A DNA stretch of 64,000 nt from Clostridia bacterium (GCA_017411435.1 JAFQQD010000031.1:99777-163776), one strand, 5' to 3'; shown: positions 4,721 through 53,484, counted from the first letter of the stretch. Numbers and translations: made by a program. Notes: generated by a model from the sequence alone, not told the origin.

Positions 4721-6751
4721 TTACCTTGTCAATACATTTGTTTTTATATCACTTTCATCGTCAGACTCAAAATAACTGTCAACGACTCTTCTTACTGCCT
4801 GTGCCACATTTGCGCCGCTGCCTGCTTTTTCAACTACGCAGGCGATGGCAATTCTTGGTTCTTCGTATGGAGCGTACGCAATGCAGATACCGTTAGTATA
4901 ACTTCCTGCTGTCTGCGCACTTCCTGTTTTTGCCGCAACAGATACCTTGCAACCTGAAAATGCACGCTGTGCAGTACCTTCGGTAACAACCATACGCATA
5001 CCCTTTAAGATTGCTTCCTGATTTTTTTTACTGAGGTTTATCTTTTCAAGCACTTCAGGAGCTGACTCTTCTGAAATACTCCCCTCAACACTTTCGACAG
5101 TCTTTATAAGACGGGGTTTGTAACGCGTTCCGCCATTTGCAAGGGTCGCCATATAATTTGCAAGCTGAAGAGGTGTCGCAAGGGTATCTGACTGACCGAT
5201 TGAAGTCTGACAAACATCTCCTGGATACCATATTCCGCCGCTTTGTTTTCTGTTTTCAGGGCTTGCAACCACACCTGTTTTTTCCTCACCGGAAAGCTCA
5301 ATACCGCTTTTTTGTCCAAATCCGAATTTCTGGGCATACAGATTAATATTCTGGATGTTCAGTCTTCTGCCTACATCAAAGAAGAAAACATTACATGAGT
5401 CGCGTATTGCTTCTGATACATTGATATATCCGTGAGTGCCACCTGTCTGATTGTATATCCAGCATGCCGGCTGATAATCTTTGAAATAAGTATACTTACC
5501 TGTATCAAGAATCTCTTCGTCAGAAGTAATCAGTTTTTCCTCCAGAGCTGCTATTCCCACCAGAGGCTTGAATGTTGATGCCGGAGCATAGGTTCCTGAA
5601 AGAGCACGGTTAAAGAGCGGATTTGACTTATTCTTAAGAAGATTGTTGTATTCCGATGTAAAGGTCTTTATTTCGTAGGACGGGTATGACGCCATCGCCA
5701 GAACATCGCCTGAATTAACATCAATTACAACTATGCTTCCTGCGTCTGCAGCGCCGCCTTCTTTTGCGCCTGCTGCAGAGGCGCTTATACTCTGAATAGT
5801 TTCGGAAAGTGCCTTTTCACACGCAAGCTGCATATCAAGATCCAAGGTCAAACTTACATTTCTTCCCTTGACGGGTGCTTTTTCCACATTCTGACCTATA
5901 CTGTATCCACCGCTTGACTGCTCGACACTTCCTCCACCGTTTTCTCCGCGGAGATAACTCTCCATAAGTTTTTCTATTCCGCTTTTTCCTATATGGGAAT
6001 TTATATTGTAGTCGTTATCCTTATTCTCCTCATACTCTTCGGCACTTATCATACCTACTCTGCCTAAGATATGTGCTGCAAGAGAGCCATAGGGATAGTT
6101 GCGCACAGGTTGGGTTACGATGCTGACATTGGGAAAACTGTCTGCCTGTTCCTTTATTACAGCAATCTCGCCTATCGGAGTATCTTCCGCAAAAAGGTAT
6201 GGCGAAGTGATTGAAAAACCGCGCTTTATCATATTAAGACGCGTTGCCGCAATACGAATACAGTCAGGCTTGGAATATTCGCCTTCATCAATATTGTAAC
6301 GGGATATTAATTCGGACATAACTTTTTTCGCACTGTCTTTCTTATTAAATCCGTTTTCAGTTTTCCACTTCTGTGCATCTTTTTTTGAAACGGTAAAGGC
6401 GTAGCTCCCATTTCTCTCTTCAACGGGAATTATTGAAGCTATGCCTGAACTTGCTGACTGCACAGTTCTGAAAAGGTTATATACAGTTTTATTAAGCTGC
6501 TCGTCCGTTCTCTGACGGTTTGAAAGTATATAGACATTGTAACCGGTTCGGCTTGATACAATTGCGCGTCCGTTACGGTCAAGAATTTCGCCGCGTGCAG
6601 CTGTAAGTTCAATACTTCTTAATGTCCTTGAATCGCTTTTTTCCCTGTAATAGTTTCCGTTTACAATCTGCAAATTCACAAGGCGCACCGAAATCATGAT
6701 TGCGACAAGTGCAAACAGAATGTAAAATGTCACATAACGCCTTGGTTTCAT
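4721..6751 (-). CDS. mrdA: Penicillin-binding protein 2 (elongation transpeptidase).
   Basis: 676 aa. N-terminal TM anchor plus PBP dimerisation domain. Transpeptidase motifs STFK (ASTFKPL), SCN (RDSCNVFF) and KTGS. Located in the mreCD context. Confidence 0.9.
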   Translation of the reverse strand: MKPRRYVTFYILFALVAIMISVRLVNLQIVNGNYYREKSDSRTLRSIELTAARGEILDRNGRAIVSSRTGYNVYILSNRQRTDEQLNKTVYNLFRTVQSASSGIASIIPVEERNGSYAFTVSKKDAQKWKTENGFNKKDSAKKVMSELISRYNIDEGEYSKPDCIRIAATRLNMIKRGFSITSPYLFAEDTPIGEIAVIKEQADSFPNVSIVTQPVRNYPYGSLAAHILGRVGMISAEEYEENKDNDYNINSHIGKSGIEKLMESYLRGENGGGSVEQSSGGYSIGQNVEKAPVKGRNVSLTLDLDMQLACEKALSETIQSISASAAGAKEGGAADAGSIVVIDVNSGDVLAMASYPSYEIKTFTSEYNNLLKNKSNPLFNRALSGTYAPASTFKPLVGIAALEEKLITSDEEILDTGKYTYFKDYQPACWIYNQTGGTHGYINVSEAIRDSCNVFFFDVGRRLNIQNINLYAQKFGFGQKSGIELSGEEKTGVVASPENRKQSGGIWYPGDVCQTSIGQSDTLATPLQLANYMATLANGGTRYKPRLIKTVESVEGSISEESAPEVLEKINLSKKNQEAILKGMRMVVTEGTAQRAFSGCKVSVAAKTGSAQTAGSYTNGICIAYAPYEEPRIAIACVVEKAGSGANVAQAVRRVVDSYFESDDESDIKTNVLTR

Positions 6752-7272
6752 AAGCTCGCCTCCTCTTTGGAGTCACTTTCTCTGTCTTCTTTTTTCTTTT
6801 TTATCTTCTGAGTTAAAATCACAAACAAAAGTGCAAATATTGCTGCAAAAAGTCCTTTTACGAAAATATTTGCGCAAAGTATTCCGATTTTCTGCGGAGT
6901 ATTAATTACTGAATGTAGTACTGCCAGAACAATTTCAAGTGCAGAAACGCTCACGAAAGAAATCCAACTCATAATAAGAGGTGAATTTTCGTTTTTTCTG
7001 TCTGTCGATATACTTACAAGAAGCGCTAAAAACATATAAACCAAAAGATTTATTCCAAACACTTGCCCATACATAACATCGATTAAAATTCCTGCAAATG
7101 CACCAAGAATTGCCGCAGAAACAAAGTCAAGCGAAACTGAAAAAATTATAACGAGTGCAAGCATTATATCAGGCGAACAGGAGAATATTTTTAAGTTTTC
7201 AAAAAACAGGGATTGGATAAGGAAAGATACATATATCCCTATAAATCTAAAAAAGGTTCTCACTCTACACAC
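6748..7272 (-). CDS. mreD: Rod shape-determining protein MreD.
   Basis: 174 aa polytopic membrane protein immediately after mreC. The start may be an internal Met. Confidence 0.7.
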   Translation of the reverse strand: MCRVRTFFRFIGIYVSFLIQSLFFENLKIFSCSPDIMLALVIIFSVSLDFVSAAILGAFAGILIDVMYGQVFGINLLVYMFLALLVSISTDRKNENSPLIMSWISFVSVSALEIVLAVLHSVINTPQKIGILCANIFVKGLFAAIFALLFVILTQKIKKKKEDRESDSKEEASL

Positions 7273-8090
7273 TTCCCTATAAGAACAGTATCAAGTTTAT
7301 AAATATCAATATCAGTTTCAATCACAGCAGTAAGAGTAAGATGTCTGCTGTCTTCTTTTATTTCCGTAATTTTGCCGATTCTGATTCCGCGTGGGAAAAT
7401 ACCGCCTGTTCCGGATGTATCAATTACATCGCCGACAACGGTCTTTGCACTGCGATCTATGTAGTTCATATTACATTTTCCGTTACTGTCACTGAGTCCT
7501 GTCGGCTCAACAATCCCCATATCTCCGCTGCGAAGACAGACTGCCGAAACCGATGTTTTTGTATCAAAAATGGTTTTTACTTTACAGAAATTATAATTTA
7601 CTTCAAAAACCACGCCTACAAGCCCCTCGGGCACCAATACGACATCGTTTACCCCAACACCGTCTTTTTTGCCCTTATCAAGGGTAATTATGCTATTAAA
7701 CTCATCTATTTTTCTGCCGATTACATTAGCACCGACAGTTTCAAAATCCGTACGGGTTTCTTTTAGGTCAATAAGCGCACGCAGACGGTCGTTTTCCGAT
7801 TTGTAGCCCTCGAGCATACGAATCTGGTCATTAAGAGAGGCGATTTCTGATTCCAGTTTTTTGTTTTTCCTGGCATTTTTTCCTGCGGAAGTTATGTTTT
7901 TGAAAAAGTTGCCTGTAGAGCTTGCTACATAACTTGTAGCTTTCTGTACAGGAGATATAACGGTACCGATTGCGTTTGATATAGCGCTGTTCCCCGTTTT
8001 GAAAGAAAATGCTGCAACACAGAGCACCGCCAAAGCTACACAGGAAAATATTATAATATGTTTTTTACCGAATTTTTTCATACATCTCAA
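7260..8090 (-). CDS. mreC: Rod shape-determining protein MreC.
   Basis: 276 aa. N-terminal TM, then a coiled-coil region, then the MreC beta-domain (GDVIDTSGTGGIFPRGIRIGKI). Confidence 0.9.
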   Translation of the reverse strand: MRCMKKFGKKHIIIFSCVALAVLCVAAFSFKTGNSAISNAIGTVISPVQKATSYVASSTGNFFKNITSAGKNARKNKKLESEIASLNDQIRMLEGYKSENDRLRALIDLKETRTDFETVGANVIGRKIDEFNSIITLDKGKKDGVGVNDVVLVPEGLVGVVFEVNYNFCKVKTIFDTKTSVSAVCLRSGDMGIVEPTGLSDSNGKCNMNYIDRSAKTVVGDVIDTSGTGGIFPRGIRIGKITEIKEDSRHLTLTAVIETDIDIYKLDTVLIGKCVE

Positions 8091-9229: not shown

Positions 9230-10519
9230 TCAGACCTTTCTTAAATGTTTTGGATAATGGTTTTTTGCAATATTATCGCTAAGTTTATACCATCCTATGG
9301 GGTAAGTGCCGTTATAAAGCATCGCCCCGTAGCCTTTTTCGCCAATATGCGAAATCGCCTCGCCCTTTATATAAAGCGAAATTTCTTCATCCGTAAGCGA
9401 TATGGTCCTTCTAAACTCATCCTTTTTAAGCGCCATACAAAGATGGTGTGACGGAATAAACCGCCCTTTTCTGATTTCGCCCAGTTGCAAGCCGGGGCGA
9501 ACACATTTTATTTTGTCAAGGGAAATCATACCTGACGGAACGAGATACAAAAAATCGCCGAATGAAACGAAAACACCGCCAAGTGTGGTATTGAGGTTTT
9601 CCTCCTCGAATTCACGATAGATATTTGTTATTTCCCTTTTTGTTTCGGTTATGGGGATTCTTTTCTCGTTTTTTCTTTTTCCACCTTTTTCAAAAAGTGC
9701 ACAGAAGTGTCCTTCGCCCTTTACCTTATGCGGCATCAGACGGTGCATTTTTACTAGTTTTATATCTTCATATTTATGCTTAAATTTTTCTGCAACATCC
9801 TCATTTTCCACACGGGCAAAGGTGCAGGTTGAATATACAAGCTGTCCGCCCGTAGCAAGCATTTTATATGCGCTGTCGAGGATTGAAAGCTGTCTTTGTG
9901 CACAAGAGTAAGTGTGTTCTATACTCCACTCCTGAACGGCGATTTCGTCTTTCCGAAACATTCCCTCGCCGCTGCAGGGGGCATCGACAATAATTTTGTC
10001 AAAGAACTCGGAAAAATGTGATTCCATTTTTTCAGGATACATATTAGTTACAATCGTATTTTTAATTCCCATACGCTCGATATTTTCGCACAGGATTTTT
10101 GCGCGCCCGGGTACAACCTCGTTCGAAACAAGAAGCCCTGTTCCGTTAAGCTTTGCGGCAAGCTGTGTACTTTTTCCGCCCGGAGCAGCACACAAATCAA
10201 GCACCTTGTCCCCCTCTTTTATATCAATAGTTTCTGCCGTAATCATTGCAGATGGCTCCTGAGAATAAAAAAGGCCTGCAATGCTTGAGGGGTGATTACC
10301 CTTTTTTCCGTCATAGTAAAAACCGTTTTCACACCAATTAACATTTTCACCGCAAAAATCCACCGTTTTCTGAAAATCAGCTACAGATAATTTAAGGGTA
10401 TTTACGCGAAGTGCCGTGTAAGGCTTATCCTCGTAGGATTTAAGGAAATCATCATATTCAGCTTTAAGGTCGGTTTGCATTCTTTCAAGGAATTTTTCGG
10501 GAAGTTTCAATAATATCAC
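9230..10519 (-). CDS. NOL1/NOP2/Sun-family rRNA (cytosine-C5) methyltransferase, RsmF/RsmB-like.
   Basis: 429 aa. SAM-binding motif DLCAAPGGKS, catalytic motif DAPCSGEG, and a C-terminal PUA-like extension. Confidence 0.85.
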   Translation of the reverse strand: MILLKLPEKFLERMQTDLKAEYDDFLKSYEDKPYTALRVNTLKLSVADFQKTVDFCGENVNWCENGFYYDGKKGNHPSSIAGLFYSQEPSAMITAETIDIKEGDKVLDLCAAPGGKSTQLAAKLNGTGLLVSNEVVPGRAKILCENIERMGIKNTIVTNMYPEKMESHFSEFFDKIIVDAPCSGEGMFRKDEIAVQEWSIEHTYSCAQRQLSILDSAYKMLATGGQLVYSTCTFARVENEDVAEKFKHKYEDIKLVKMHRLMPHKVKGEGHFCALFEKGGKRKNEKRIPITETKREITNIYREFEEENLNTTLGGVFVSFGDFLYLVPSGMISLDKIKCVRPGLQLGEIRKGRFIPSHHLCMALKKDEFRRTISLTDEEISLYIKGEAISHIGEKGYGAMLYNGTYPIGWYKLSDNIAKNHYPKHLRKV

Positions 10520-14700: not shown

Positions 14701-15269
14701 TGATCGTCTGACCAACATTCAACCTTCTGATATTCGTGAGAAGTTCTGAAACCGTCAAAGAAATGAAGGAAAGGAACTCTTGCCTTAAGAGTTGTAAGGT
14801 GTGCTACTGCACCGAGGTCCATTGCTTCCTGAGGGTTAACAGAACAGAGCATTGCATAACCTGTCTGACGGCATGCATATACATCCTGATGGTCGCCAAA
14901 GATTGAAAGAGCGTGTGAAGCAAGTGCACGAGCAGATACATTGATAACTGAGGGCAAAAGTTCACCTGCGATCTTGTACATATTGGGAATCATAAGAAGA
15001 AGGCCCTGAGATGCTGTGTAAGTTGTTGTAAGAGCACCTGCTGTAAGTGAGCCGTGAACTGCACCAGCAGCACCGCCTTCAGACTGCATTTCTGCAATCT
15101 TTACAGTTCTGCCGAACATATTCTTCTTGCCCTTGGCAGCCCATTCATCTGTTACTTCCGCCATATTTGAGGAAGGTGTGATGGGGTAAATTGCGGCAAC
15201 ATCTGTAAACGCATATGAGACATATGCGGCAGCGGTGTTACCGTCCATGGTTTTCTTTTGTCTTGCCAT
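11748..15269 (-). CDS. nifJ: Pyruvate:ferredoxin (flavodoxin) oxidoreductase, homodimeric single-chain type.
   Basis: 1173 aa. N-terminal AAYVSYAFTDVAAIYPITPSS, ferredoxin-like CxxCxxCxxxCP pairs in the middle, and a TPP domain GGDGWAYDIG. Confidence 0.95.
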   Translation of the reverse strand: MARQKKTMDGNTAAAYVSYAFTDVAAIYPITPSSNMAEVTDEWAAKGKKNMFGRTVKIAEMQSEGGAAGAVHGSLTAGALTTTYTASQGLLLMIPNMYKIAGELLPSVINVSARALASHALSIFGDHQDVYACRQTGYAMLCSVNPQEAMDLGAVAHLTTLKARVPFLHFFDGFRTSHEYQKVECWSDDQLKALVDMDAVDAFRRRSLNPEHPAQRGTAQNPDVFFQAKEANNKFYDAVPDLCQEYMDKVNKEIGTDYKLFNYYGAADAEHVIVAMGSACDTIQETVDYMVKQGAKVGLIKVRLYRPFSAKHLIEAIPATVKKISVLDRTKECGSIGEPLYLDVVAALRDSKFKDVEIFGGRYGLGSKDTTPAQIIAVYKNNDKKRFTIGINDDVTFTSLEITENPDTTPEGITSCKFWGLGADGTVGANKNSVKIIGDHTDMNVQAYFDYDSKKSGGLTVSHLRFGNAKITSTYLINKADFVACHKASYIRKYDMVSDVKPGGVFLLNCPWTKAEEFEAHIPGQVKRYIAENDIQFYVIDGVAIGKEIGLGNRINTVLQSAFFKLANIIPAEDAIKYMKDAATASYSKKGEAIVKMNHDAIDMGAQKVIKVEVPASWKDAKDEDLTSKVAGEGKLVDYINNILNPINSFAGMKLPVSAFVPYADGEVPLGSSAFEKRGIAIDVPEWNSDNCIQCNFCSYVCPHACIRPVVLTEEEAKNAPEGIKYINMTGMSGLYFAMAVSVLDCTGCGSCANVCPGKKGEKALVMKPLETQEAQQAIFDYGIKIPAKAEVLDKFKETTVKGSQFKQPLLEFSGACAGCGETPYAKLVTQLYGDKMYIANATGCSSIWGGSSPSTPYTVNEKGEGPAWANSLFEDNAEYGYGMYLAQNTLREDLVAKVEAVADKAADADKAVIAKYIETKEDVNANKVATAELIEVLSKMNTPEANEILKDKEYLSKKSVWILGGDGWAYDIGYGGLDHVLASGDDVNILVFDTEVYSNTGGQSSKATPTGAIAKFAAAGKEVKKKDLAAIAMSYGYVYVAQVAQGADYNQCMKAFVEAGTYNGPSIVIAYAPCINHGIKGGMSIAQTEEKRAVQAGYWHLFRFDPRRAEEGLNPFQLDSKEPTESYEEFLMNEVRYNSLARSNPERAKALFEKAAAGAKAKYEALVKRAQD

Positions 15270-15400
15270 GAAAAAATTCCTCCTTGAGTTTTATAATAAA
15301 TTAAATAAATTAATTTCTAATTTACCAACCTTCATTATAATCCTTTTTTTTCAATTAGTCAAGGTCTTACACGAGAAATAACCGTGCTTTTTTTATCGAT

Positions 15401-17944
15401 TTATGTGCTTTCGTTTGAAATATCGCGAATAATCTCCTCTATTTCTTTTTTTGTTTCCTCAATTTCAGTTATAAATGCGGCGGCGCTGATTCTTACTGCA
15501 CCGCTTCCGAGAATTATCAATTGTTCAAGATAATCACTCGTTGCAACCTGAACATGATGCTTTTTACCGAGTTCGTGAACCGCCTTTTCAATATATGCAT
15601 CAGCAGTCTGCGCTTCCTTGGTGTAAACCACAGTAATGTTGTGAATTCTTTCCACTTCTCCGCGGTTTCCTTTTACTTTATAAGCATCAAAAACAACAAT
15701 CACTTCGTACGGACGCATCGCCTTATATGCGCAGATACGGTCAATTAACATATTTCGCGCATCTTCGAGGTTGTCCTTTGCAATTTCTTTGAGTTCGTCC
15801 CACGCAAAAATTATGTTGTAGCCATCGATAAGAAGATAGCCCGGCCCTTCCTTCTGCGCTGATGCACGGTGCTTCTTAGGCGGTGCAACATCCTTTGGAG
15901 TGCGCATTGCATTATGATTTTTGCGCACAATTTTACCGTATGTGCGCTCGAAAATTGCCATAAGTTCGTCATCGTCATAAACTGCTTTTGTCTTTGGGCG
16001 CACCAAAACAGAAATAGCATCATCAGTTTTTTCACTGAAAATACTGTCAAGATGCATAAACTCCGTTACCTGATGCCACGGCACATTAAATCCTGCGCCG
16101 TGCTGACAGAATACGCTGTCTGCACTGTTTTCGATATCTCCATCACAGTTATAGCCGATTTGGGCTACTACCTCATCTTGATTTGCACATTCAAGATACC
16201 CTCTGAAGGAGCATGAAAGTGTGCCGAGTCCGTGGGTATAACTCGTGACGCTGCGCTGATATGAGCGTATTTGTCGAACGGGAGCAAAGCCTGTGATAAC
16301 GGCTTCATTTTCCAGTATCTCGGGAGCATTAACGGTAGCACCCATCTGTTCAAGGTCGGTCATTGCCCTGCCGATTGAGTCTGTCGGCAGATTAAGTGTA
16401 AAGTCGTAATAAGGCTCTAAAAGGACACTTTCAGCACACCTGAGTCCGTGTCGTACTGCGCGGTAGGTCGCCTGGCGAAAATCGCCACCCTCAGTATGCT
16501 TAAGGTGTGCCTTTCCCGATTTTAATGTGATTTTCATATCGGTAATTGCGCTTCCCGTAAGGACGCCGATATGCCTCTTTTCATTAAGGTGTGTGAGAAT
16601 AAGCCTTTGCCAGTTACGGGCAAGGAAATTTTCGTCAGCATCTGTATCGAATTTAAGACCTTCGCCTCTTTTAAGAGGTTCGAGCAGAAGATGTACCTCG
16701 GCATAATGGCGGAGTGGTTCATAGTGACCTACGCCTTCAACCTTGGATGCGATTGTCTCCTTGTATACGATGCTTCCCTGTGCAAATTCAACATCAAGAT
16801 CAAAGCGTTCTTTAAGAAGGCGCTCCATAATTTCAAGTTGAACTTCGCCCATAAGCTGAATATGAATTTCGCCAAGGGCACTGTTGTAGCTCGCGCGGAG
16901 CTGGGTTTCCTCTTCCTCAAGTTTTTTGAGTTTTGCAAGGGCGACACGCGAATCTGTGCCGTCTTTTATGACAACACGGTAGTTAAAGACGGGTTCAAGT
17001 GTGAGAGAAGGAGAATTTTTTTCAAATCCTAAACCCTCGCCGCCCGATAGGGACGAAATCCCGCAAACTGCACAGACATCGCCCGATGTAACTTCCGAAG
17101 CACTTTTATATTTTTCGCCTGAATATATACGGATTTCGGATACCTTTTCCTCGCCTATTTTATCACGGACGCAAAGTTTTCCGCCTGTTATTTTCATATG
17201 GGTAAGGCGTGCACCTTTTTCATCCTCCGAAATTTTGAAAACACGGGCACCGAAATTTTCGTTTTTGTCAGCATAGAGAGTGTATTTTTCTATTCCTGAA
17301 AGGAGTTCTTTGACGCCCTCGTTTTTTAAGGCTGAACCGAAATAGCATGGGAATATTTTGCGTTGTGCAATGGCATTTTTTATTTCATCATCAGTAATAG
17401 TTCCGTTTTCAAGGTAAAAATCACAAAGTTCTTCACTGCAAAGTGCAGTTTCCTCAAAAAAGGTTTCATCGTCATTTCCAAACACAACAAAACCACCCCC
17501 AAAGGCATTTATAAGCCCCTGGAGGTTTTTGTCGGCATCTGCCGTTTGCATATCCATTTTATTTACAAATACGAAGGTGGGTATTGCGTGGTCTGACAAA
17601 AGTTTCCACAGGGTTTTTGTATGACTCTGCACACCTTCGGCACCATTTATTACGAGTATTGCCGCATCAAGCGCCCAGAGAACTCTTTCCGCTTCTGCGG
17701 AAAAATCCACATGTCCCGGAGTGTCAAGTAGGGTTATTTGTGCATTTTCTGTATTTATTACCGCCTGCTTTGAAAATATGGTAATTCCGCGGTCGCGCTC
17801 CATATCATTTGTGTCCAGAAAAGCGTCTCCGTGGTCCACTCTCCCTAATTTGCGGATTTCGCCCGATGTAAAAAGCATCGCCTCGGAAAGAGTGGTTTTA
17901 CCACTGTCAACATGCGCCAGTATTCCCAGTGCTATTTTTTTCAT
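15401..17944 (-). CDS. Fusion protein. The N-terminal ~680 aa is a TetM/TetO/EF-G-like translational GTPase. The C-terminal ~160 aa is a YacP/Rae1-type NYN (PIN-like) ribonuclease domain.
   Basis: 847 aa. N-terminus AHVDSGKTTLSEAMLF...RGITI...DTPGH...NKMD and overall collinearity with the ribosomal protection protein family. C-terminus LLIDGYNIIFAW...VIVVFDAYKVKG...TADAYIEKAV...VATSDYLEQ closely parallels B. subtilis YacP/Rae1 (VDGYNMIGAW...VIVVFDAHLVKG...TADERIEK...VATSDYTEQ). Confidence 0.75.
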   Translation of the reverse strand: MKKIALGILAHVDSGKTTLSEAMLFTSGEIRKLGRVDHGDAFLDTNDMERDRGITIFSKQAVINTENAQITLLDTPGHVDFSAEAERVLWALDAAILVINGAEGVQSHTKTLWKLLSDHAIPTFVFVNKMDMQTADADKNLQGLINAFGGGFVVFGNDDETFFEETALCSEELCDFYLENGTITDDEIKNAIAQRKIFPCYFGSALKNEGVKELLSGIEKYTLYADKNENFGARVFKISEDEKGARLTHMKITGGKLCVRDKIGEEKVSEIRIYSGEKYKSASEVTSGDVCAVCGISSLSGGEGLGFEKNSPSLTLEPVFNYRVVIKDGTDSRVALAKLKKLEEEETQLRASYNSALGEIHIQLMGEVQLEIMERLLKERFDLDVEFAQGSIVYKETIASKVEGVGHYEPLRHYAEVHLLLEPLKRGEGLKFDTDADENFLARNWQRLILTHLNEKRHIGVLTGSAITDMKITLKSGKAHLKHTEGGDFRQATYRAVRHGLRCAESVLLEPYYDFTLNLPTDSIGRAMTDLEQMGATVNAPEILENEAVITGFAPVRQIRSYQRSVTSYTHGLGTLSCSFRGYLECANQDEVVAQIGYNCDGDIENSADSVFCQHGAGFNVPWHQVTEFMHLDSIFSEKTDDAISVLVRPKTKAVYDDDELMAIFERTYGKIVRKNHNAMRTPKDVAPPKKHRASAQKEGPGYLLIDGYNIIFAWDELKEIAKDNLEDARNMLIDRICAYKAMRPYEVIVVFDAYKVKGNRGEVERIHNITVVYTKEAQTADAYIEKAVHELGKKHHVQVATSDYLEQLIILGSGAVRISAAAFITEIEETKKEIEEIIRDISNEST

Positions 17945-18008
17945 AAGGTAGTTTCCTTCTATAAAAAGTTTCTATGTGTATTATATCTGTAATACCTTAC
18001 AAAGTCAA

Positions 18009-18038
18009 GAAAGGGAGATGCGAACATCTCCCTTTTTA
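18009..18038. terminator. Intrinsic terminator at the MATE gene 3' end, between divergent units.
   Basis: GGGAGATGcgaaCATCTCCC followed by tttttatt on the plus strand. The minus-strand reading is followed by TTTCTTGACTTT. Confidence 0.65.
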
Positions 18039-49930: not shown

Positions 49931-52369
49931 ATGACAAAGACTACTAAAAAGAAAACTACAAACTCTAAAAAGAATCTGTCTCCGTCAGGGAAGAAATTAA
50001 CATCCAGAAAGAAGTCGCCATCGACTTCTTCGCGTTCTACAACAAAATCTTCTGCGGCAAAGTATCCCGCAAAAGAGCTTCGTCTTATTTTTCTTGTTGC
50101 CTCTGCGGTAGTACTGATTATTTCTTATTATTTTAACGCTTTTGGGCTCATAGGCAGAATCTTAAAAGGAATAGGTAAAATACTTCTTGGAAGTATGTTC
50201 TTTACCATACCGATAATTTTTTCTGCGGTAACAGTTCATGTTTTCATCAAAGGGAAGATTGCTCCGCATAAGCACCGCTATGTATTTGCATCTGTTTCAA
50301 TTGCGGCAATAGCGGCACTTCATACGCTGAAATTCATTTCTGCTAATCCGGACTTTTTTTCAGGCACTATCCCGACAATTTTTGAAATAATCCTTGACAG
50401 CAGCATGTCTTATCTGTCAGGCGGTATAATGGGTGCAGTTATTGCACTTCCGTTGAAAGCACTTGTGGATACTGTCGGCACTTGTGTAATCCTTATTACA
50501 TTGGCGCTGGCATCATTTGTAATTGCAACGGGTACTGAGCCATTTGTAAAACTGGCAAAGCTTATATCTTCCATGTTTGCTGATATGACGGCCAAAGAAG
50601 AAGATGAGGAAGGGGAAAAACCCGATAAAAACGAAATCAAGATTAACGGTGTGGAAGAGCCTAAGGAGAAAAAGCGCCTTCTTAAATCAGCTGAAAAGAA
50701 AAACAAAAAAGAGGCTGAGAAAGAGTCCTTAGAAGATGATTCCCCGTCAGAATTCAAAATTAATCTTTACAGCGATAAAAAAGACGACACTACTAAAACA
50801 AGTAAGGTTGAAATCCCCAATGATATAAAGAAAATGGCAATGGAAGAATCGGGCGGTGTGGAGGAAGAAAAGGTAGACACTACTCCTATTGAGGTTACCG
50901 AGGATGAGATTGAAACCGATTACATTGAGTACACTTTCCCTCCCATTGACCTTCTTTCCAAGGCAAAGGCTCCTTCCGGTCAGGACAGACCCGAAGACCT
51001 TCGCACACAGGCTAAGAAGCTTGTCGATACTCTTTCCAGTTTCGGCGTTGAGGCTAAGGTACTTGAAGTCAGCAAGGGACCAAGTGTAACGAGGTTTGAG
51101 CTTCAGCCGTCAGCAGGTGTCAAGGTAAGTAAAATCGTAAATCTCGCTGATGATATTGCGCTTAATCTTGCAGCTTTTGGTGTAAGAATCGAAGCTCCCA
51201 TTCCGGGAAAAGCGGCGGTCGGAATTGAAATCCCCAACAAGAGCACATCGATGGTTCCTCTTCGTGATGTAATCGACAGTGATGAGTTTGGGAAGTTCGG
51301 CTCTAAAACTGCTTTTGCTATGGGCAAGGATATTTCAGGACAACCTATTATAAGCGACATTTCAAAGATGCCGCACATGCTTATCGCAGGTGCTACCGGC
51401 AGCGGTAAGAGTGTGTGCATAAATTCACTTATTACAAGCATTCTTTATAAGGCAGACCCCAACGAAGTTAAGCTTATCCTCATTGACCCCAAGGTTGTTG
51501 AGCTTGGCGTTTATAACGGTATTCCCCATCTGCTTATTCCCGTTGTAACAGACCCCAGGCGTGCCGCAGGTGCTCTTAACTGGGCTGTTCAGGAAATGGT
51601 TAAAAGGTACAGTATGTTTGCAACTGCAAATGTGCGTGATATCAAGGGTTATAATGAATATGCGGCAATGAGCGGTGACAGGCTGCTTGAACAGATTGTT
51701 ATCGTGATTGACGAGCTTGCTGACCTTATGATGGTTTCTCCGCATGAGGTTGAAGATTCTATCTGCCGTCTCGCACAGATGGCGCGAGCTGCAGGTATGC
51801 ACCTTGTAATTGCGACTCAGCGTCCGAGCGTTGATGTTATCACAGGTCTTATCAAGGCAAATGTTCCCAGCCGAATTGCATTCAGCGTTTCAAGTCAGAT
51901 TGACAGCCGTACTATTCTGGATATGGGCGGTGCTGAAAAGCTTCTGGGTAAGGGTGATATGCTCTTCCTTCCCATGGGCGCCAGCAAGCCTAAGCGTATT
52001 CAGGGTGCGTTCGTTTCTGATAAGGAAATCGAAAAAATTGTTGAGTTTATCAAGTCCGATTCATCGGCTCATTATAATGAAGATATTATTGAACATATTG
52101 AAAACGGTGTTGAGGACCACGCAGGCGGAGATGATTCGGATGCAGATGACCTTCTTCCGCAGGCTATTGAAATTGTAGTTGAGCTTGGTCAGGCAAGCGC
52201 TTCTCTTCTTCAAAGGAAACTGAAAGTCGGCTACTCCCGTGCAGGCAGACTTATCGACCAGCTTGAAGAGCGCGGTATAATCGGACCTCATGAGGGTAGT
52301 AAACCCCGTAAGGTTTTAATGAGCAGAAATGAATTTCAGGAAATGATGCTTAACAGCATTGAGGACTAA
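49931..52369 (+). CDS. ftsK: DNA translocase FtsK/SpoIIIE.
   Basis: 812 aa. N-terminal TM segments, a K/E-rich linker, an ATPase motor with Walker A GATGSGKS, and a C-terminal gamma winged-helix domain. Confidence 0.9.
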   Translation: MTKTTKKKTTNSKKNLSPSGKKLTSRKKSPSTSSRSTTKSSAAKYPAKELRLIFLVASAVVLIISYYFNAFGLIGRILKGIGKILLGSMFFTIPIIFSAVTVHVFIKGKIAPHKHRYVFASVSIAAIAALHTLKFISANPDFFSGTIPTIFEIILDSSMSYLSGGIMGAVIALPLKALVDTVGTCVILITLALASFVIATGTEPFVKLAKLISSMFADMTAKEEDEEGEKPDKNEIKINGVEEPKEKKRLLKSAEKKNKKEAEKESLEDDSPSEFKINLYSDKKDDTTKTSKVEIPNDIKKMAMEESGGVEEEKVDTTPIEVTEDEIETDYIEYTFPPIDLLSKAKAPSGQDRPEDLRTQAKKLVDTLSSFGVEAKVLEVSKGPSVTRFELQPSAGVKVSKIVNLADDIALNLAAFGVRIEAPIPGKAAVGIEIPNKSTSMVPLRDVIDSDEFGKFGSKTAFAMGKDISGQPIISDISKMPHMLIAGATGSGKSVCINSLITSILYKADPNEVKLILIDPKVVELGVYNGIPHLLIPVVTDPRRAAGALNWAVQEMVKRYSMFATANVRDIKGYNEYAAMSGDRLLEQIVIVIDELADLMMVSPHEVEDSICRLAQMARAAGMHLVIATQRPSVDVITGLIKANVPSRIAFSVSSQIDSRTILDMGGAEKLLGKGDMLFLPMGASKPKRIQGAFVSDKEIEKIVEFIKSDSSAHYNEDIIEHIENGVEDHAGGDDSDADDLLPQAIEIVVELGQASASLLQRKLKVGYSRAGRLIDQLEERGIIGPHEGSKPRKVLMSRNEFQEMMLNSIED

Positions 52370-52486: not shown

Positions 52487-52510
52487 CAATTATATGGTGA
52501 GGTGAGTTAT

Positions 52511-53137
52511 ATGGATAATGCATCAAACAAAAGCTTCTCCTCATTCTGCGATGAAGATTTAGTTATTCTTGCTCAGAAGGGCAACGACAGGGCACTTGAT
52601 TATTTACTTGGTAAGTATTTCATTTATGTGCGTAACAAATCTCTTTCGTATTACATTGCAGGCGCTGATAGAGATGACATAATTCAGGAGGGTATGATTG
52701 GTCTGTTTAAGGCGGTCAGGGACTTCAGCAGTGAGCGCGGCGTGACTTTCAAAACATTTGCGGATGTTTGCGTTACGAGACAAATTCTCACAGCTGTTAA
52801 GAATGCCAGCAGACAGAAGCATGCACCTCTTAATTTTTATGTTTCGTTAAACAAATCTGTTACCGATAATGACGATGATTCTACATTGGTTGATATATTG
52901 GGACAAGCCAAAGGCTCAAACCCAGAAGAGATACTTCTTGAAAAAGAAAAGGCGGATACAATCGGGCTTGAGATGACGCGGCTTCTTTCTGACTATGAGC
53001 TTCGCGTTCTTTCCCTCTATCTTCAGGGAAAAAGTTATCTCGACATCGGAAATGAAATCGGCAAATCCCCAAAGTCAGTTGACAATGCGCTTCAGCGCAT
53101 AAAGAAAAAGTTTGAGAAGATTGCTTCTGACAATTAA
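52511..53137 (+). CDS. sigH: Sporulation sigma factor sigma-H (Spo0H).
   Basis: Preferred start ATG 52511 (RBS GGTGAGGTGAG); the ORF track starts at GTG 52502. Matches B. subtilis SigH: ADRDDIIQEGMIGLFKAVRDF, CVTRQILTAVKNASRQKH.PLN.YVSL, LSDYELRVLSLYLQGKSY, SVDNALQRIKKK. Confidence 0.85.
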   Translation: MDNASNKSFSSFCDEDLVILAQKGNDRALDYLLGKYFIYVRNKSLSYYIAGADRDDIIQEGMIGLFKAVRDFSSERGVTFKTFADVCVTRQILTAVKNASRQKHAPLNFYVSLNKSVTDNDDDSTLVDILGQAKGSNPEEILLEKEKADTIGLEMTRLLSDYELRVLSLYLQGKSYLDIGNEIGKSPKSVDNALQRIKKKFEKIASDN

Positions 53138-53214: not shown

Positions 53215-53484
53215 ATGTACGAAGACAAGACTTTAGTCTGCAAGGATTGCGGACAGGAATTCGTGTTCACAGCTGGCGAACAGGAATTCTACGCAGAGAA
53301 AGGCTTCCAGAACGAACCTCAGAGATGTAAGGAATGCCGCGCTGCAAAGAAAGCATCACTCAGAGAAAACAGAGAAATGTATACTGCTGTTTGTGCTGAA
53401 TGTGGTGGCGAAGCAAAGGTTCCCTTTGTTCCGAAGGATGACAGACCTGTTTACTGCAGCGAGTGCTTTGCAAAAAACAAATAA
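53215..53484 (+). CDS. Small zinc-ribbon protein (zf-trcl-like).
   Basis: 89 aa with two CxxC...CxxC units: CKDCGQEFVFTAGEQEFYAEKGF...RCKECR and CAECGGEAKVPFVP...VYCSEC. Confidence 0.6.
   Translation: MYEDKTLVCKDCGQEFVFTAGEQEFYAEKGFQNEPQRCKECRAAKKASLRENREMYTAVCAECGGEAKVPFVPKDDRPVYCSECFAKNK

Follow-up and report, generated by a model that had tools for sequence, protein, structure and literature searches.

The fusion gene and its product

The gene considered here lies on the minus strand of a 64,000-nucleotide stretch of DNA from a Clostridia bacterium (GCA_017411435.1, JAFQQD010000031.1:99777-163776), which is referred to below, at its full length, as the window. It reads without interruption through 847 codons, from an ATG at 17944 to a TAA at 15401-15403, and joins a GTPase that resembles TetM and the elongation factor EF-G to a C-terminal NYN nuclease domain of the Rae1/YacP type. 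A first-pass annotation of this DNA had proposed such a fusion in a single open reading frame (ORF); the ORF is as it described, Pfam matches to both halves, far beyond what chance would give, agree with it, and the motifs that it quoted are all present, namely AHVDSGKTT (residues 10-18), RGITI (52-56), DTPGH (74-78) and NKMD (128-131) in the GTPase half and, further on, the linker PKDVAPPKKHRASAQKEGPG (683-702), LLIDGYNIIFAW (704-715), VIVVFDAYKVKG (748-759), TADAYIEK (780-787) and VATSDYLEQ (800-808). Two of its boundaries need to be moved. The homology to ribosomal GTPases, which it followed to about residue 680, is real, but that to TetM, TetO and EF-G stops at about residues 585-589, and the nuclease domain, clear as it is, occupies about 145 residues (702-847) rather than the last 160 or so. 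The parts of the protein, and the signals in front of the gene, are collected in Table 1.

Table 1. Features of the fusion gene and its upstream region, in window coordinates
Feature	Residues	Coordinates	Strand	Remarks
Complete coding sequence, GTPase-NYN fusion	847 aa plus TAA stop	15401..17944	minus	Identical to NCBI MBQ3022526.1
G domain, G' insert shortened	1-221	17282..17944	minus	Pfam GTP_EFTU, residues 4-221, E 1.3e-49
Domain II	231-302	17039..17254	minus	EF-G_D2, 22.4 bits, under the 27-bit Pfam gathering score; fold backed by AlphaFold2 model and Foldseek
Domain III	317-388	16781..16996	minus	Pfam EFG_III
Domain IV	391-504	16433..16774	minus	Pfam EFG_IV
Domain IV tip loop motif GVGHYEPLRHYAEV	404-417	16694..16735	minus	Family-specific; shorter than EF-G loop RQSGGRGQYG
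Domain IV loop III motif AHLKHTEGGDFRQATYRA	479-496	16457..16510	minus	Replaces YYSPVSTPADFR of TetM/TetO and YHDVDSSEMAFK of EF-G
Domain V	507-589	16178..16426	minus	Pfam EFG_C
Post-domain-V element (helix, beta-hairpin, helix)	590-630	16055..16177	minus	Predicted structured, pLDDT >90; motif DSVFCxHGAG
Flexible tether	631-701 (71 aa)	15842..16054	minus	Largely disordered in AlphaFold2 model
Amphipathic helix in tether, DDELMAIFERTYG	658-670	15935..15973	minus	Family motif [DE]E[LIV]xxI[FL]x[RK]T[YF]G
Basic Pro-containing pre-nuclease segment	671-701	15842..15934	minus	9 K+R, 2 D+E and 4 P in 31 residues
NYN_YacP / Rae1-type nuclease domain	702-847	15404..15841	minus	PF05991 match, residues 704-843
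Ribosome-binding site GAAGGA, 9 nt before ATG		17954..17959	minus	Direct sequence reading
Promoter, sigma-70-type, TTGACT-17-TATAAT		17980..18008	minus	11/12 matches
Hairpin, 11 bp stem, 3' of upstream MATE transporter gene		18010..18035	minus	Likely terminator

An AlphaFold2 model computed from a 98-sequence family alignment (mean predicted local distance difference test score, pLDDT, 88.2; predicted template modelling score 0.68) predicts two rigid bodies linked by a disordered tether with one short helix, the NYN domain being compact. In the model the extra element after domain V is well ordered at residues 589-629, the tether helix covers 658-669 and the NYN domain 702-846. In the PDB, Foldseek found matches to EF-G and EF-2 that extend over about 680 aligned columns, the best at E 2.9e-54, and no solved structure with the fused architecture. 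The nuclease domain scores 171.2 bits against the NYN_YacP model of Pfam (gathering score 24.6; E 2.4e-50). Between the two bodies the tether falls below a pLDDT of 50 at residues 641-657 and 672-693, and its length across the family ranges from 44 to 194 residues, with a median of 88; counted over the same columns (630-702), the window protein has 73. The tether helix DDELMAIFERTYG is conserved amid sequence that is otherwise disordered, variable in length and poorly conserved, and the pre-nuclease segment that follows it carries a net positive charge in 88% of family members.

The fusion itself is already known, and the novelty implied by the first-pass annotation has to be given up. Atkinson 2015 (BMC Genomics) reported it in ten Clostridiales genomes, with sequences in Additional file 8 (entries for R. 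albus 7, E. eligens, E. rectale, B. proteoclasticus, C. cellulolyticum H10, C. lentocellum, L. phytofermentans, C. thermocellum ATCC 27405 and D. hafniense), and Matelska 2017 (NAR; PMC5499597) described 'TetM-NYN_YacP fusion proteins' in some Clostridia, calling their role unclear. The window protein is a member of this family. Over about 850 aligned residues it is 54% identical to the R. albus 7 protein (YP_004106010.1) and 52% identical to the C. thermocellum ATCC 27405 member, and it has the same domain order and the same signatures (GHFEPLRHYAEV, AHxKHTEGGDFR, DSVFCxHG, IFERTYG and YLLVDGYN). It differs from part of the published family in belonging to a shorter, Oscillospiraceae-type subgroup, with its 71-residue tether and about 47 residues after the ATSD motif (15404-15544), against 79 in fusions of the C. 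thermocellum type. For B. subtilis Rae1 the corresponding count is about 70 residues, if its native length is, as we assume, 170 amino acids.

Conservation of the catalytic centres and of domain IV

Conservation was assessed on 98 family sequences that are 39-89% identical to the window protein. In the GTPase half the invariant columns include D13, G15 and K16 of the P-loop, T55 of switch I, the D74-T-P-G-H78 stretch with the catalytic His78, and K129 and D131 of the NKxD motif; in the nuclease half they are D707, Y709, N710, D753, T775, D782 and D804. The GYN motif directly follows the first catalytic aspartate (D707-G708-Y709-N710), as Matelska 2017 gives for the NYN_YacP family, G708 being conserved in at least 90% of the sequences. 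The first-pass annotation had let its reading of the C-terminal domain hang on the catalytic aspartates, and these are in place: the NYN core is 45% identical to B. subtilis Rae1/YacP (5MQ8/5MQ9; E 9e-30 against 5MQ8), all four active-site aspartates line up, and D707 and D782 correspond to D7 and D81 of Rae1, the two residues exchanged in the published catalytic-dead mutant D7N D81N (PMC10351889). Judged by these alignments, both catalytic centres are intact. The fusion differs from Rae1 in its setting, since Rae1 is a free protein whose gene lies between rlmB and sigH, whereas the domain studied here is the C-terminus of an 847-residue GTPase with a promoter of its own; it also lacks the last 25 or so residues of the B. 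subtilis protein.

The most conserved module of the fusion is domain IV, with a mean column conservation of 0.83 among 79 relatives against 0.65-0.70 elsewhere, and of 0.68 among 145 divergent representatives against 0.48-0.58 for the other domains. Its two tip motifs, AHxKHTEGGDFRQATYRA and GHxEPLRHYAEV, are essentially invariant, and in a pairwise alignment His480 of the first one lines up with the domain IV loop histidine of EF-G. The family-specific sequence of loop III, which replaces those of TetM/TetO and EF-G, is therefore not a matter of drift, and conservation this strong in domain IV speaks for a precise contact with the decoding centre. Comparison with a 90%-identical relative gave ratios of nonsynonymous to synonymous substitution rates (dN/dS) of 0.058 for the GTPase domains, 0.042 for domain IV, 0.150 for the post-domain-V element, 0.066 for the tether and 0.032 for the nuclease; every segment, including the tether, is under purifying selection.

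Distribution and inheritance of the fusion

The fusion is a real, ancient and widespread gene that is common in gut and rumen Clostridia. In a search of 5.8 billion proteins, all of the 120 best homologs carry both PF00009 and PF05991, are about 840-870 residues long and share 57-100% identity with the window protein, and the 150 best representatives of clusters formed at 50% identity are without exception fusions or fragments of fusions (40-54% identity); more than 150 such clusters encode the fusion. A scan with one genome per species gave at least 600 pattern matches, and 583 were confirmed among the matches listed, so that orthologous fusions with the same domain order, which the first-pass annotation had suggested looking for in other Clostridia, are found in at least 583 species-representative genomes. 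The carriers among the matches listed are mostly Oscillospiraceae, Ruminococcaceae and unclassified Clostridia, and annotated records widen the range to Monoglobales and Lachnospirales. Cultured carriers include Ruminococcus callidus ATCC 27760, Anaerotruncus massiliensis, Intestinimonas butyriciproducens, Caproicibacter fermentans and Faecalispora sporosphaeroides, and the gene is also present in complete genomes of cultured strains. All 847 codons of the window gene align without a gap to the 90%-identical relative.

The two halves of the protein also appear to share their history. Among 77 species-level sequences the pairwise identities of the GTPase and nuclease halves are strongly correlated (Mantel r=0.75, a value reached by none of 2000 permutations), which is the pattern expected of one fused gene inherited as a unit. 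The same comparison on the representatives of the 50% clusters gave only r=0.15, on sequences that are nearly equidistant and so leave the test little power. From these comparisons, and from the records described next, inheritance looks vertical and chromosomal.

Only two of 72,556 plasmid records carry the fusion, and both are non-mobilizable, chromosome-like replicons with secA or methionyl aminopeptidase. The PLSDB 'plasmids' from Monoglobus (12 and 15) and from C. difficile are pieces of chromosome, with secA, sigH, rlmB, the ribosomal-protein operon and tuf, and any inference about plasmid carriage that was based on such entries would mislead. Carriage by phages was likewise considered and set aside: two records from human faeces labelled 'UNVERIFIED Bacteriophage sp.' contain the fusion, and both are apparently bacterial chromosomal contigs. 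One of them, MT835514.1 (fusion at 15204-17813), encodes AddB/AddA, CspBA, FeoB, gltX, GlpK and a DinG-like helicase; in the other, MT835563.1 (fusion at 5397-8024), two neighbours were scanned, of which one is SleB-like and one gave no match.

Relation to Tet proteins and EF-G

That the GTPase half is TetM-like, as had been noted at the outset, holds for its architecture, but the protein fails the curated cutoff of every Tet and EF-G model. Among the NCBIfam models tet_protect comes first, with 409.8 bits where 775 would be required, and the other Tet models fall further short (tet_protect_M_W 280 against 1100, Tet(M) 238 against 1420, Tet(Q) 260 against 1425, Otr(A) 299 against 900), as do those of EF-G (TIGR00484 291.3 against 659.4 and NF009381 320.7 against 583, with EF-G2 also far under). 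This is a property of the family, for tet_protect is the best model for all of 50 diverse members, and even the top match (E 9e-134, estimated at about 447 bits) stays below the cutoff.

The likeness to Tet(M) and Tet(O) (3J9Y, 4V6V), the closest sequence matches in the PDB, aligned over residues 1-585 of the fusion, consists in the five-domain, EF-G-like architecture, the intact G motifs and the reduced G' insert. With EF-G the protein shares the fold, motifs G1 to G4, the catalytic histidine and the position of His480, but its G' insert is some 45 residues shorter (residues 141 to 163, against 148 to 215 in EF-G) and both tip loops of domain IV differ. A shortened G' insert is a feature of TetM as well. 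Unlike Tet(M) and Tet(O), the fusion lacks the YSPVS loop, the leader attenuator and a mobile element, and it has the additional tether and nuclease. At the position of the loop YGLYYSPVSTPADFR, whose YSPVS motif displaces tetracycline in TetM and TetO, the window protein has SGKAHLKHTEGGDFR, which contains the invariant HxKHTEGG, and EF-G has DGSYHDVDSSEMAFK. The C-terminal extension of TetM (model positions 616-639) is unmatched, since profile and pairwise alignments end at about model position 615 and query residue 588, and the post-domain-V element at 590-630 has no detectable homology to it; a resemblance suspected by eye (VFCQ against PVCQ) was backed by no alignment and was dropped. By these sequence criteria the GTPase half is Tet-like in outline and is not a canonical Tet protein.

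Database names do not reflect this. MBQ3022526.1 and the Agathobacter rectalis homolog (5093-7894 in its record) are named 'TetM/TetW/TetO/TetS family tetracycline resistance ribosomal protection protein' by NCBI, although they score about a quarter of the cutoff of the model so named (280 against 1100) and lack YSPVS; other members bear the same Tet name or that of 'translation factor GTPase family protein' in RefSeq. Resistome surveys of gut metagenomes that go by name may thus over-count tet genes through this large family.

Transcription unit and gene neighbourhood

The fusion gene is, as far as its signals can be read, a transcription unit of its own with a near-consensus, constitutive-type promoter. 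The hairpin at 18010..18035 likely parts it from the unit of the MATE gene upstream, and the downstream neighbour, a pyruvate:ferredoxin oxidoreductase gene, has its own promoter. Because the 5' untranslated region, estimated from the predicted promoter, is only about 30 nt long, there is no room for a leader peptide and attenuator of the tet(M) type. An Rfam search of the whole window found no regulatory RNA element.

The window is chromosomal core, with min and mre genes, PBP2, the oxidoreductase just mentioned, SpoIIE, tgt, RNase J, arg and car genes, alaS, ftsK, sigH and rnf. Among 80 loci with the fusion no conserved operon partner was found, including the helix-turn-helix proteins named by Matelska 2017. 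The commonest neighbour, directly downstream in 10 of the 80 loci and not in the window, is a 224-residue protein that by eye resembles tRNA methyltransferases of the TrmO/TsaA type; a MATE gene is a neighbour in only seven. The MATE ORF of the window (514 residues, 18039-19583) is probably over-extended at its 5' end, as its TIGR00797 match begins at residue 81 and the ortholog at one related locus starts near the internal 'MKKHTVDM' (residue 59). Two further genes of RNA metabolism in the window have no linkage to the fusion: an RsmF-like 16S rRNA m5C methyltransferase (9230-10519), under the equivalog cutoff, and the RNase J (25958-27706; 645 bits against a family cutoff of 400, and 715 against the 820-bit cutoff of RNase J1).

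Free yacP and the sigH locus

Elsewhere in the Firmicutes a free yacP gene forms part of an operon for rRNA and tRNA processing, cysS-mrnC-rlmB-yacP (PMC5499597), and in C. difficile, which served as a control, the array is gltX-cysS-mrnC-thyX-rlmB-NYN-sigH-tuf. In the window sigH (52502-53137; 263 bits, cutoff 208) stands apart from this array and is, as the first-pass annotation had pointed out, unlinked from the NYN gene: it follows ftsK (49931-52369) and is succeeded by a small protein with a CxxC-x17-CxxC pattern (53215-53484). In Monoglobus sigH comes after pta-ackA and a metallophosphoesterase gene comes after rlmB; in Vescimonas rlmB is followed by a 718-residue hypothetical protein. 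No free yacP was found at these anchor positions, after rlmB or before sigH, in Monoglobus, in Vescimonas or (for sigH) in the window, and the Monoglobus and Vescimonas records hold no NYN match besides the fusion. The 64-kb window contains no second NYN domain, and no second NYN gene was found in 82 related loci totalling 981 kb. The earlier statement that the domain occurs only as this fusion therefore stands for the window, but does not extend to the genome as a whole. The evidence that the fusion has replaced a free Rae1 is partial and covers the rlmB and sigH anchor loci, the 82 loci and the window.

In MT835514.1 (15204-19508) the fusion gene is directly followed by gltX, the first gene of the gltX-cysS-mrnC-rlmB-yacP operon of Bacillus and C. 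difficile. This adjacency may be a remnant of an ancestral location, or a coincidence.

Discussion

The domain fused to the GTPase is best understood from what has recently been learned of its free counterpart. A nuclease of mRNA whose action depends on translation, Rae1 works on ribosomes that have stalled or collided and feeds transfer-messenger RNA (tmRNA) (PMC12407103; PMC13622287), and a September 2026 preprint finds it needed for collision-induced tmRNA tagging ('CART') in B. subtilis (PMC13622287). The same preprint describes the mode by which Rae1 recognises the ribosome as open, there being no ribosome-bound structure of it, and neither this nor the other recent paper (PMC12407103) mentions a GTPase fusion. 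The model that placed Rae1 in the A site rested on docking and has since been withdrawn by its authors; on ribosomes that have stalled or collided, the cut is now placed some 12 nt upstream of that site. The first-pass annotation had explained the fusion by a GTPase that brings a nuclease to the A site, and this rationale falls with that model; the broader idea behind it, that a ribosome-binding GTPase addresses the nuclease to the ribosome, seems to us, by analogy with the relatives of both halves, the most plausible one.

We propose, with a probability of roughly one half, that the fusion is an mRNA nuclease which docks on the ribosome and serves ribosomes that have stalled or collided. The binding to the ribosome, the mRNA as substrate, the state of the ribosome that is recognised and the part played by GTP are all points that we infer from homologs. 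On this proposal the N-terminal 630 residues would be an active GTPase of the EF-G/TetM type that docks, like its relatives, in the factor-binding site of the ribosome, where the family-specific tip of domain IV would probe the decoding centre of the 30S subunit, and the C-terminal 145 residues would be an active Rae1-type endoribonuclease at the end of a tether that is flexible and in part basic. The GTPase module would in this way direct the nuclease to the ribosome, which free Rae1 has to find unaided. Once a stalled or collided ribosome was recognised, the tethered nuclease would cut the mRNA nearby and GTP hydrolysis would free the factor, the truncated mRNA passing to trans-translation as in the CART pathway of B. 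subtilis Rae1. Judged from tether lengths alone, the shortest tethers of the family (44 residues) could span the way around the 30S subunit only with difficulty, so that on the occupied ribosome a cut at the side of mRNA entry or of the A site would be more likely than one at the distant exit side; if the factor sat on the trailing, collided ribosome, such a cut would coincide with the site mapped for Rae1, which lies behind the stalled one.

Several points weigh against this proposal. If domain IV enters the A site as in TetM and EF-G, the nuclease is excluded from that site at the same time. Proteins of the window type lack the C-terminal tail of 25-30 residues that B. subtilis Rae1 and the C. 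thermocellum-type fusions have, and the RNA or ribosome contacts of this tail-less subgroup may differ from those of Rae1. The gene neighbourhood offers no functional hint, its commonest family being the one seen in only 10 of the 80 loci, and a literature search found no experimental work on any member of the fusion family.

The main rival is that the nuclease is directed at rRNA or tRNA, the factor inspecting ribosomes in order to mature an rRNA end or to decommission faulty or idle ones. Cleavage by the PIN nuclease Nob1 in maturation of the eukaryotic 40S subunit is assisted by a GTPase and offers an analogy. An RNase activity on rRNA is what Atkinson 2015 proposed for the fusion, and the rRNA- and tRNA-processing operon in which free yacP sits (PMC5499597, and our C. 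difficile control) points the same way; the rRNA around the factor site (h44, H69 and the sarcin-ricin loop) lies nearer for a short tether than the mRNA exit does, and the basic pre-nuclease segment could bind rRNA. However, every experimentally defined substrate of Rae1 is an mRNA cleaved in a translation-dependent manner, no rRNA role has been reported for it, and the fused gene has left the processing operon, so that we hold an rRNA or tRNA target to be unlikely. Atkinson 2015 also suggested a tetracycline ribosomal protection protein whose accessory RNase domain aids resistance. The ranking of tet_protect first among NCBIfam models for all 50 members, the place of TetO and TetM as closest sequences in the PDB, the G' insert shortened relative to EF-G and the MATE efflux gene upstream in the window would fit such a role, and yet no member comes near the curated cutoff, of which the window protein reaches about half; the YSPVS loop has given way to an invariant motif of another kind and the TetM C-terminal extension is unmatched; the promoter is constitutive-type and no leader attenuator precedes the gene; and the gene sits in the chromosomal core of at least 583 species among variable neighbours (MATE in 7 of 80 loci), the two plasmid records being chromosome-like and the 'phage' matches bacterial. 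A resistance function seems to us improbable on this evidence.

Fusions of nucleases with NTPases are frequent in defence systems, and the Tetreault 2026 preprint speculates that Rae1-type cleavage may act on phage mRNAs, which raises the thought of a mobile toxin or anti-phage effector, an abortive-infection nuclease under GTPase control. PADLOC, however, returned 0 families at E<=0.001, the gene lies among housekeeping and variable neighbours rather than in defence islands, its inheritance looks vertical from the co-divergence of its halves, and true plasmids and phages lack it; this we consider very improbable. There remains the reading in which the single ORF is no gene at all and a sequencing or assembly indel has joined two neighbours. 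It entered the discussion solely as an a priori possibility, raised in the first-pass annotation, and the comparative data exclude it to the extent that we give it practically no weight: the fusion recurs in independent isolates and metagenome-assembled genomes (the 583 or more genomes, the 120 homologs and the 150 cluster representatives), complete genomes among them, and the tether, where a check for a frameshift had been advised (15850-15950), is gap-free against the 90%-identical relative and has the low dN/dS given above.

The proposed ribosome-docked nuclease has functional analogs, though only functional ones. SmrB of E. coli and Cue2 of yeast are nucleases that initiate rescue once recruited to ribosomes that have stalled or collided, and in Hbs1-Dom34 a translational GTPase brings an A-site probe to stalled ribosomes; their folds (SMR, eRF1-like) are unrelated to those of the fusion, and in none of them, to our knowledge, is a nuclease covalently joined to a translational GTPase. 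In a stronger form, which we advance tentatively and hold to be somewhat less probable than the proposal itself, the fusion would be the only Rae1-type nuclease, and the collision or stall rescue endonuclease, of the Oscillospirales, Lachnospirales, Monoglobales and related Clostridia, docking at the factor site, reading the state of the ribosome with the tip of domain IV, cutting the mRNA and leaving upon GTP hydrolysis. Were this so, it would be the first case of a translational GTPase that has a nuclease effector built in, it would reveal where on the ribosome nucleases of the Rae1 type act, and it would give a stable grip on the ribosome-bound structure, which with free Rae1 has so far been out of reach.

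The existence of the fusion will not surprise specialists in translational GTPases or PIN nucleases. What is added here is the scale of the family, its standing apart from canonical Tet proteins, the finding that constraint is strongest in domain IV, a description of how the tether is built and the link to collision rescue by Rae1. The family is large, is carried by many of the dominant Clostridia of gut and rumen, and keeps both of its catalytic centres strictly conserved. With its Rae1 domain tied for good to a GTPase of the factor site, the fusion is a clue offered by nature to where Rae1 acts, and it provides an overlooked and experimentally tractable route to the question of how Rae1 recognises the ribosome.

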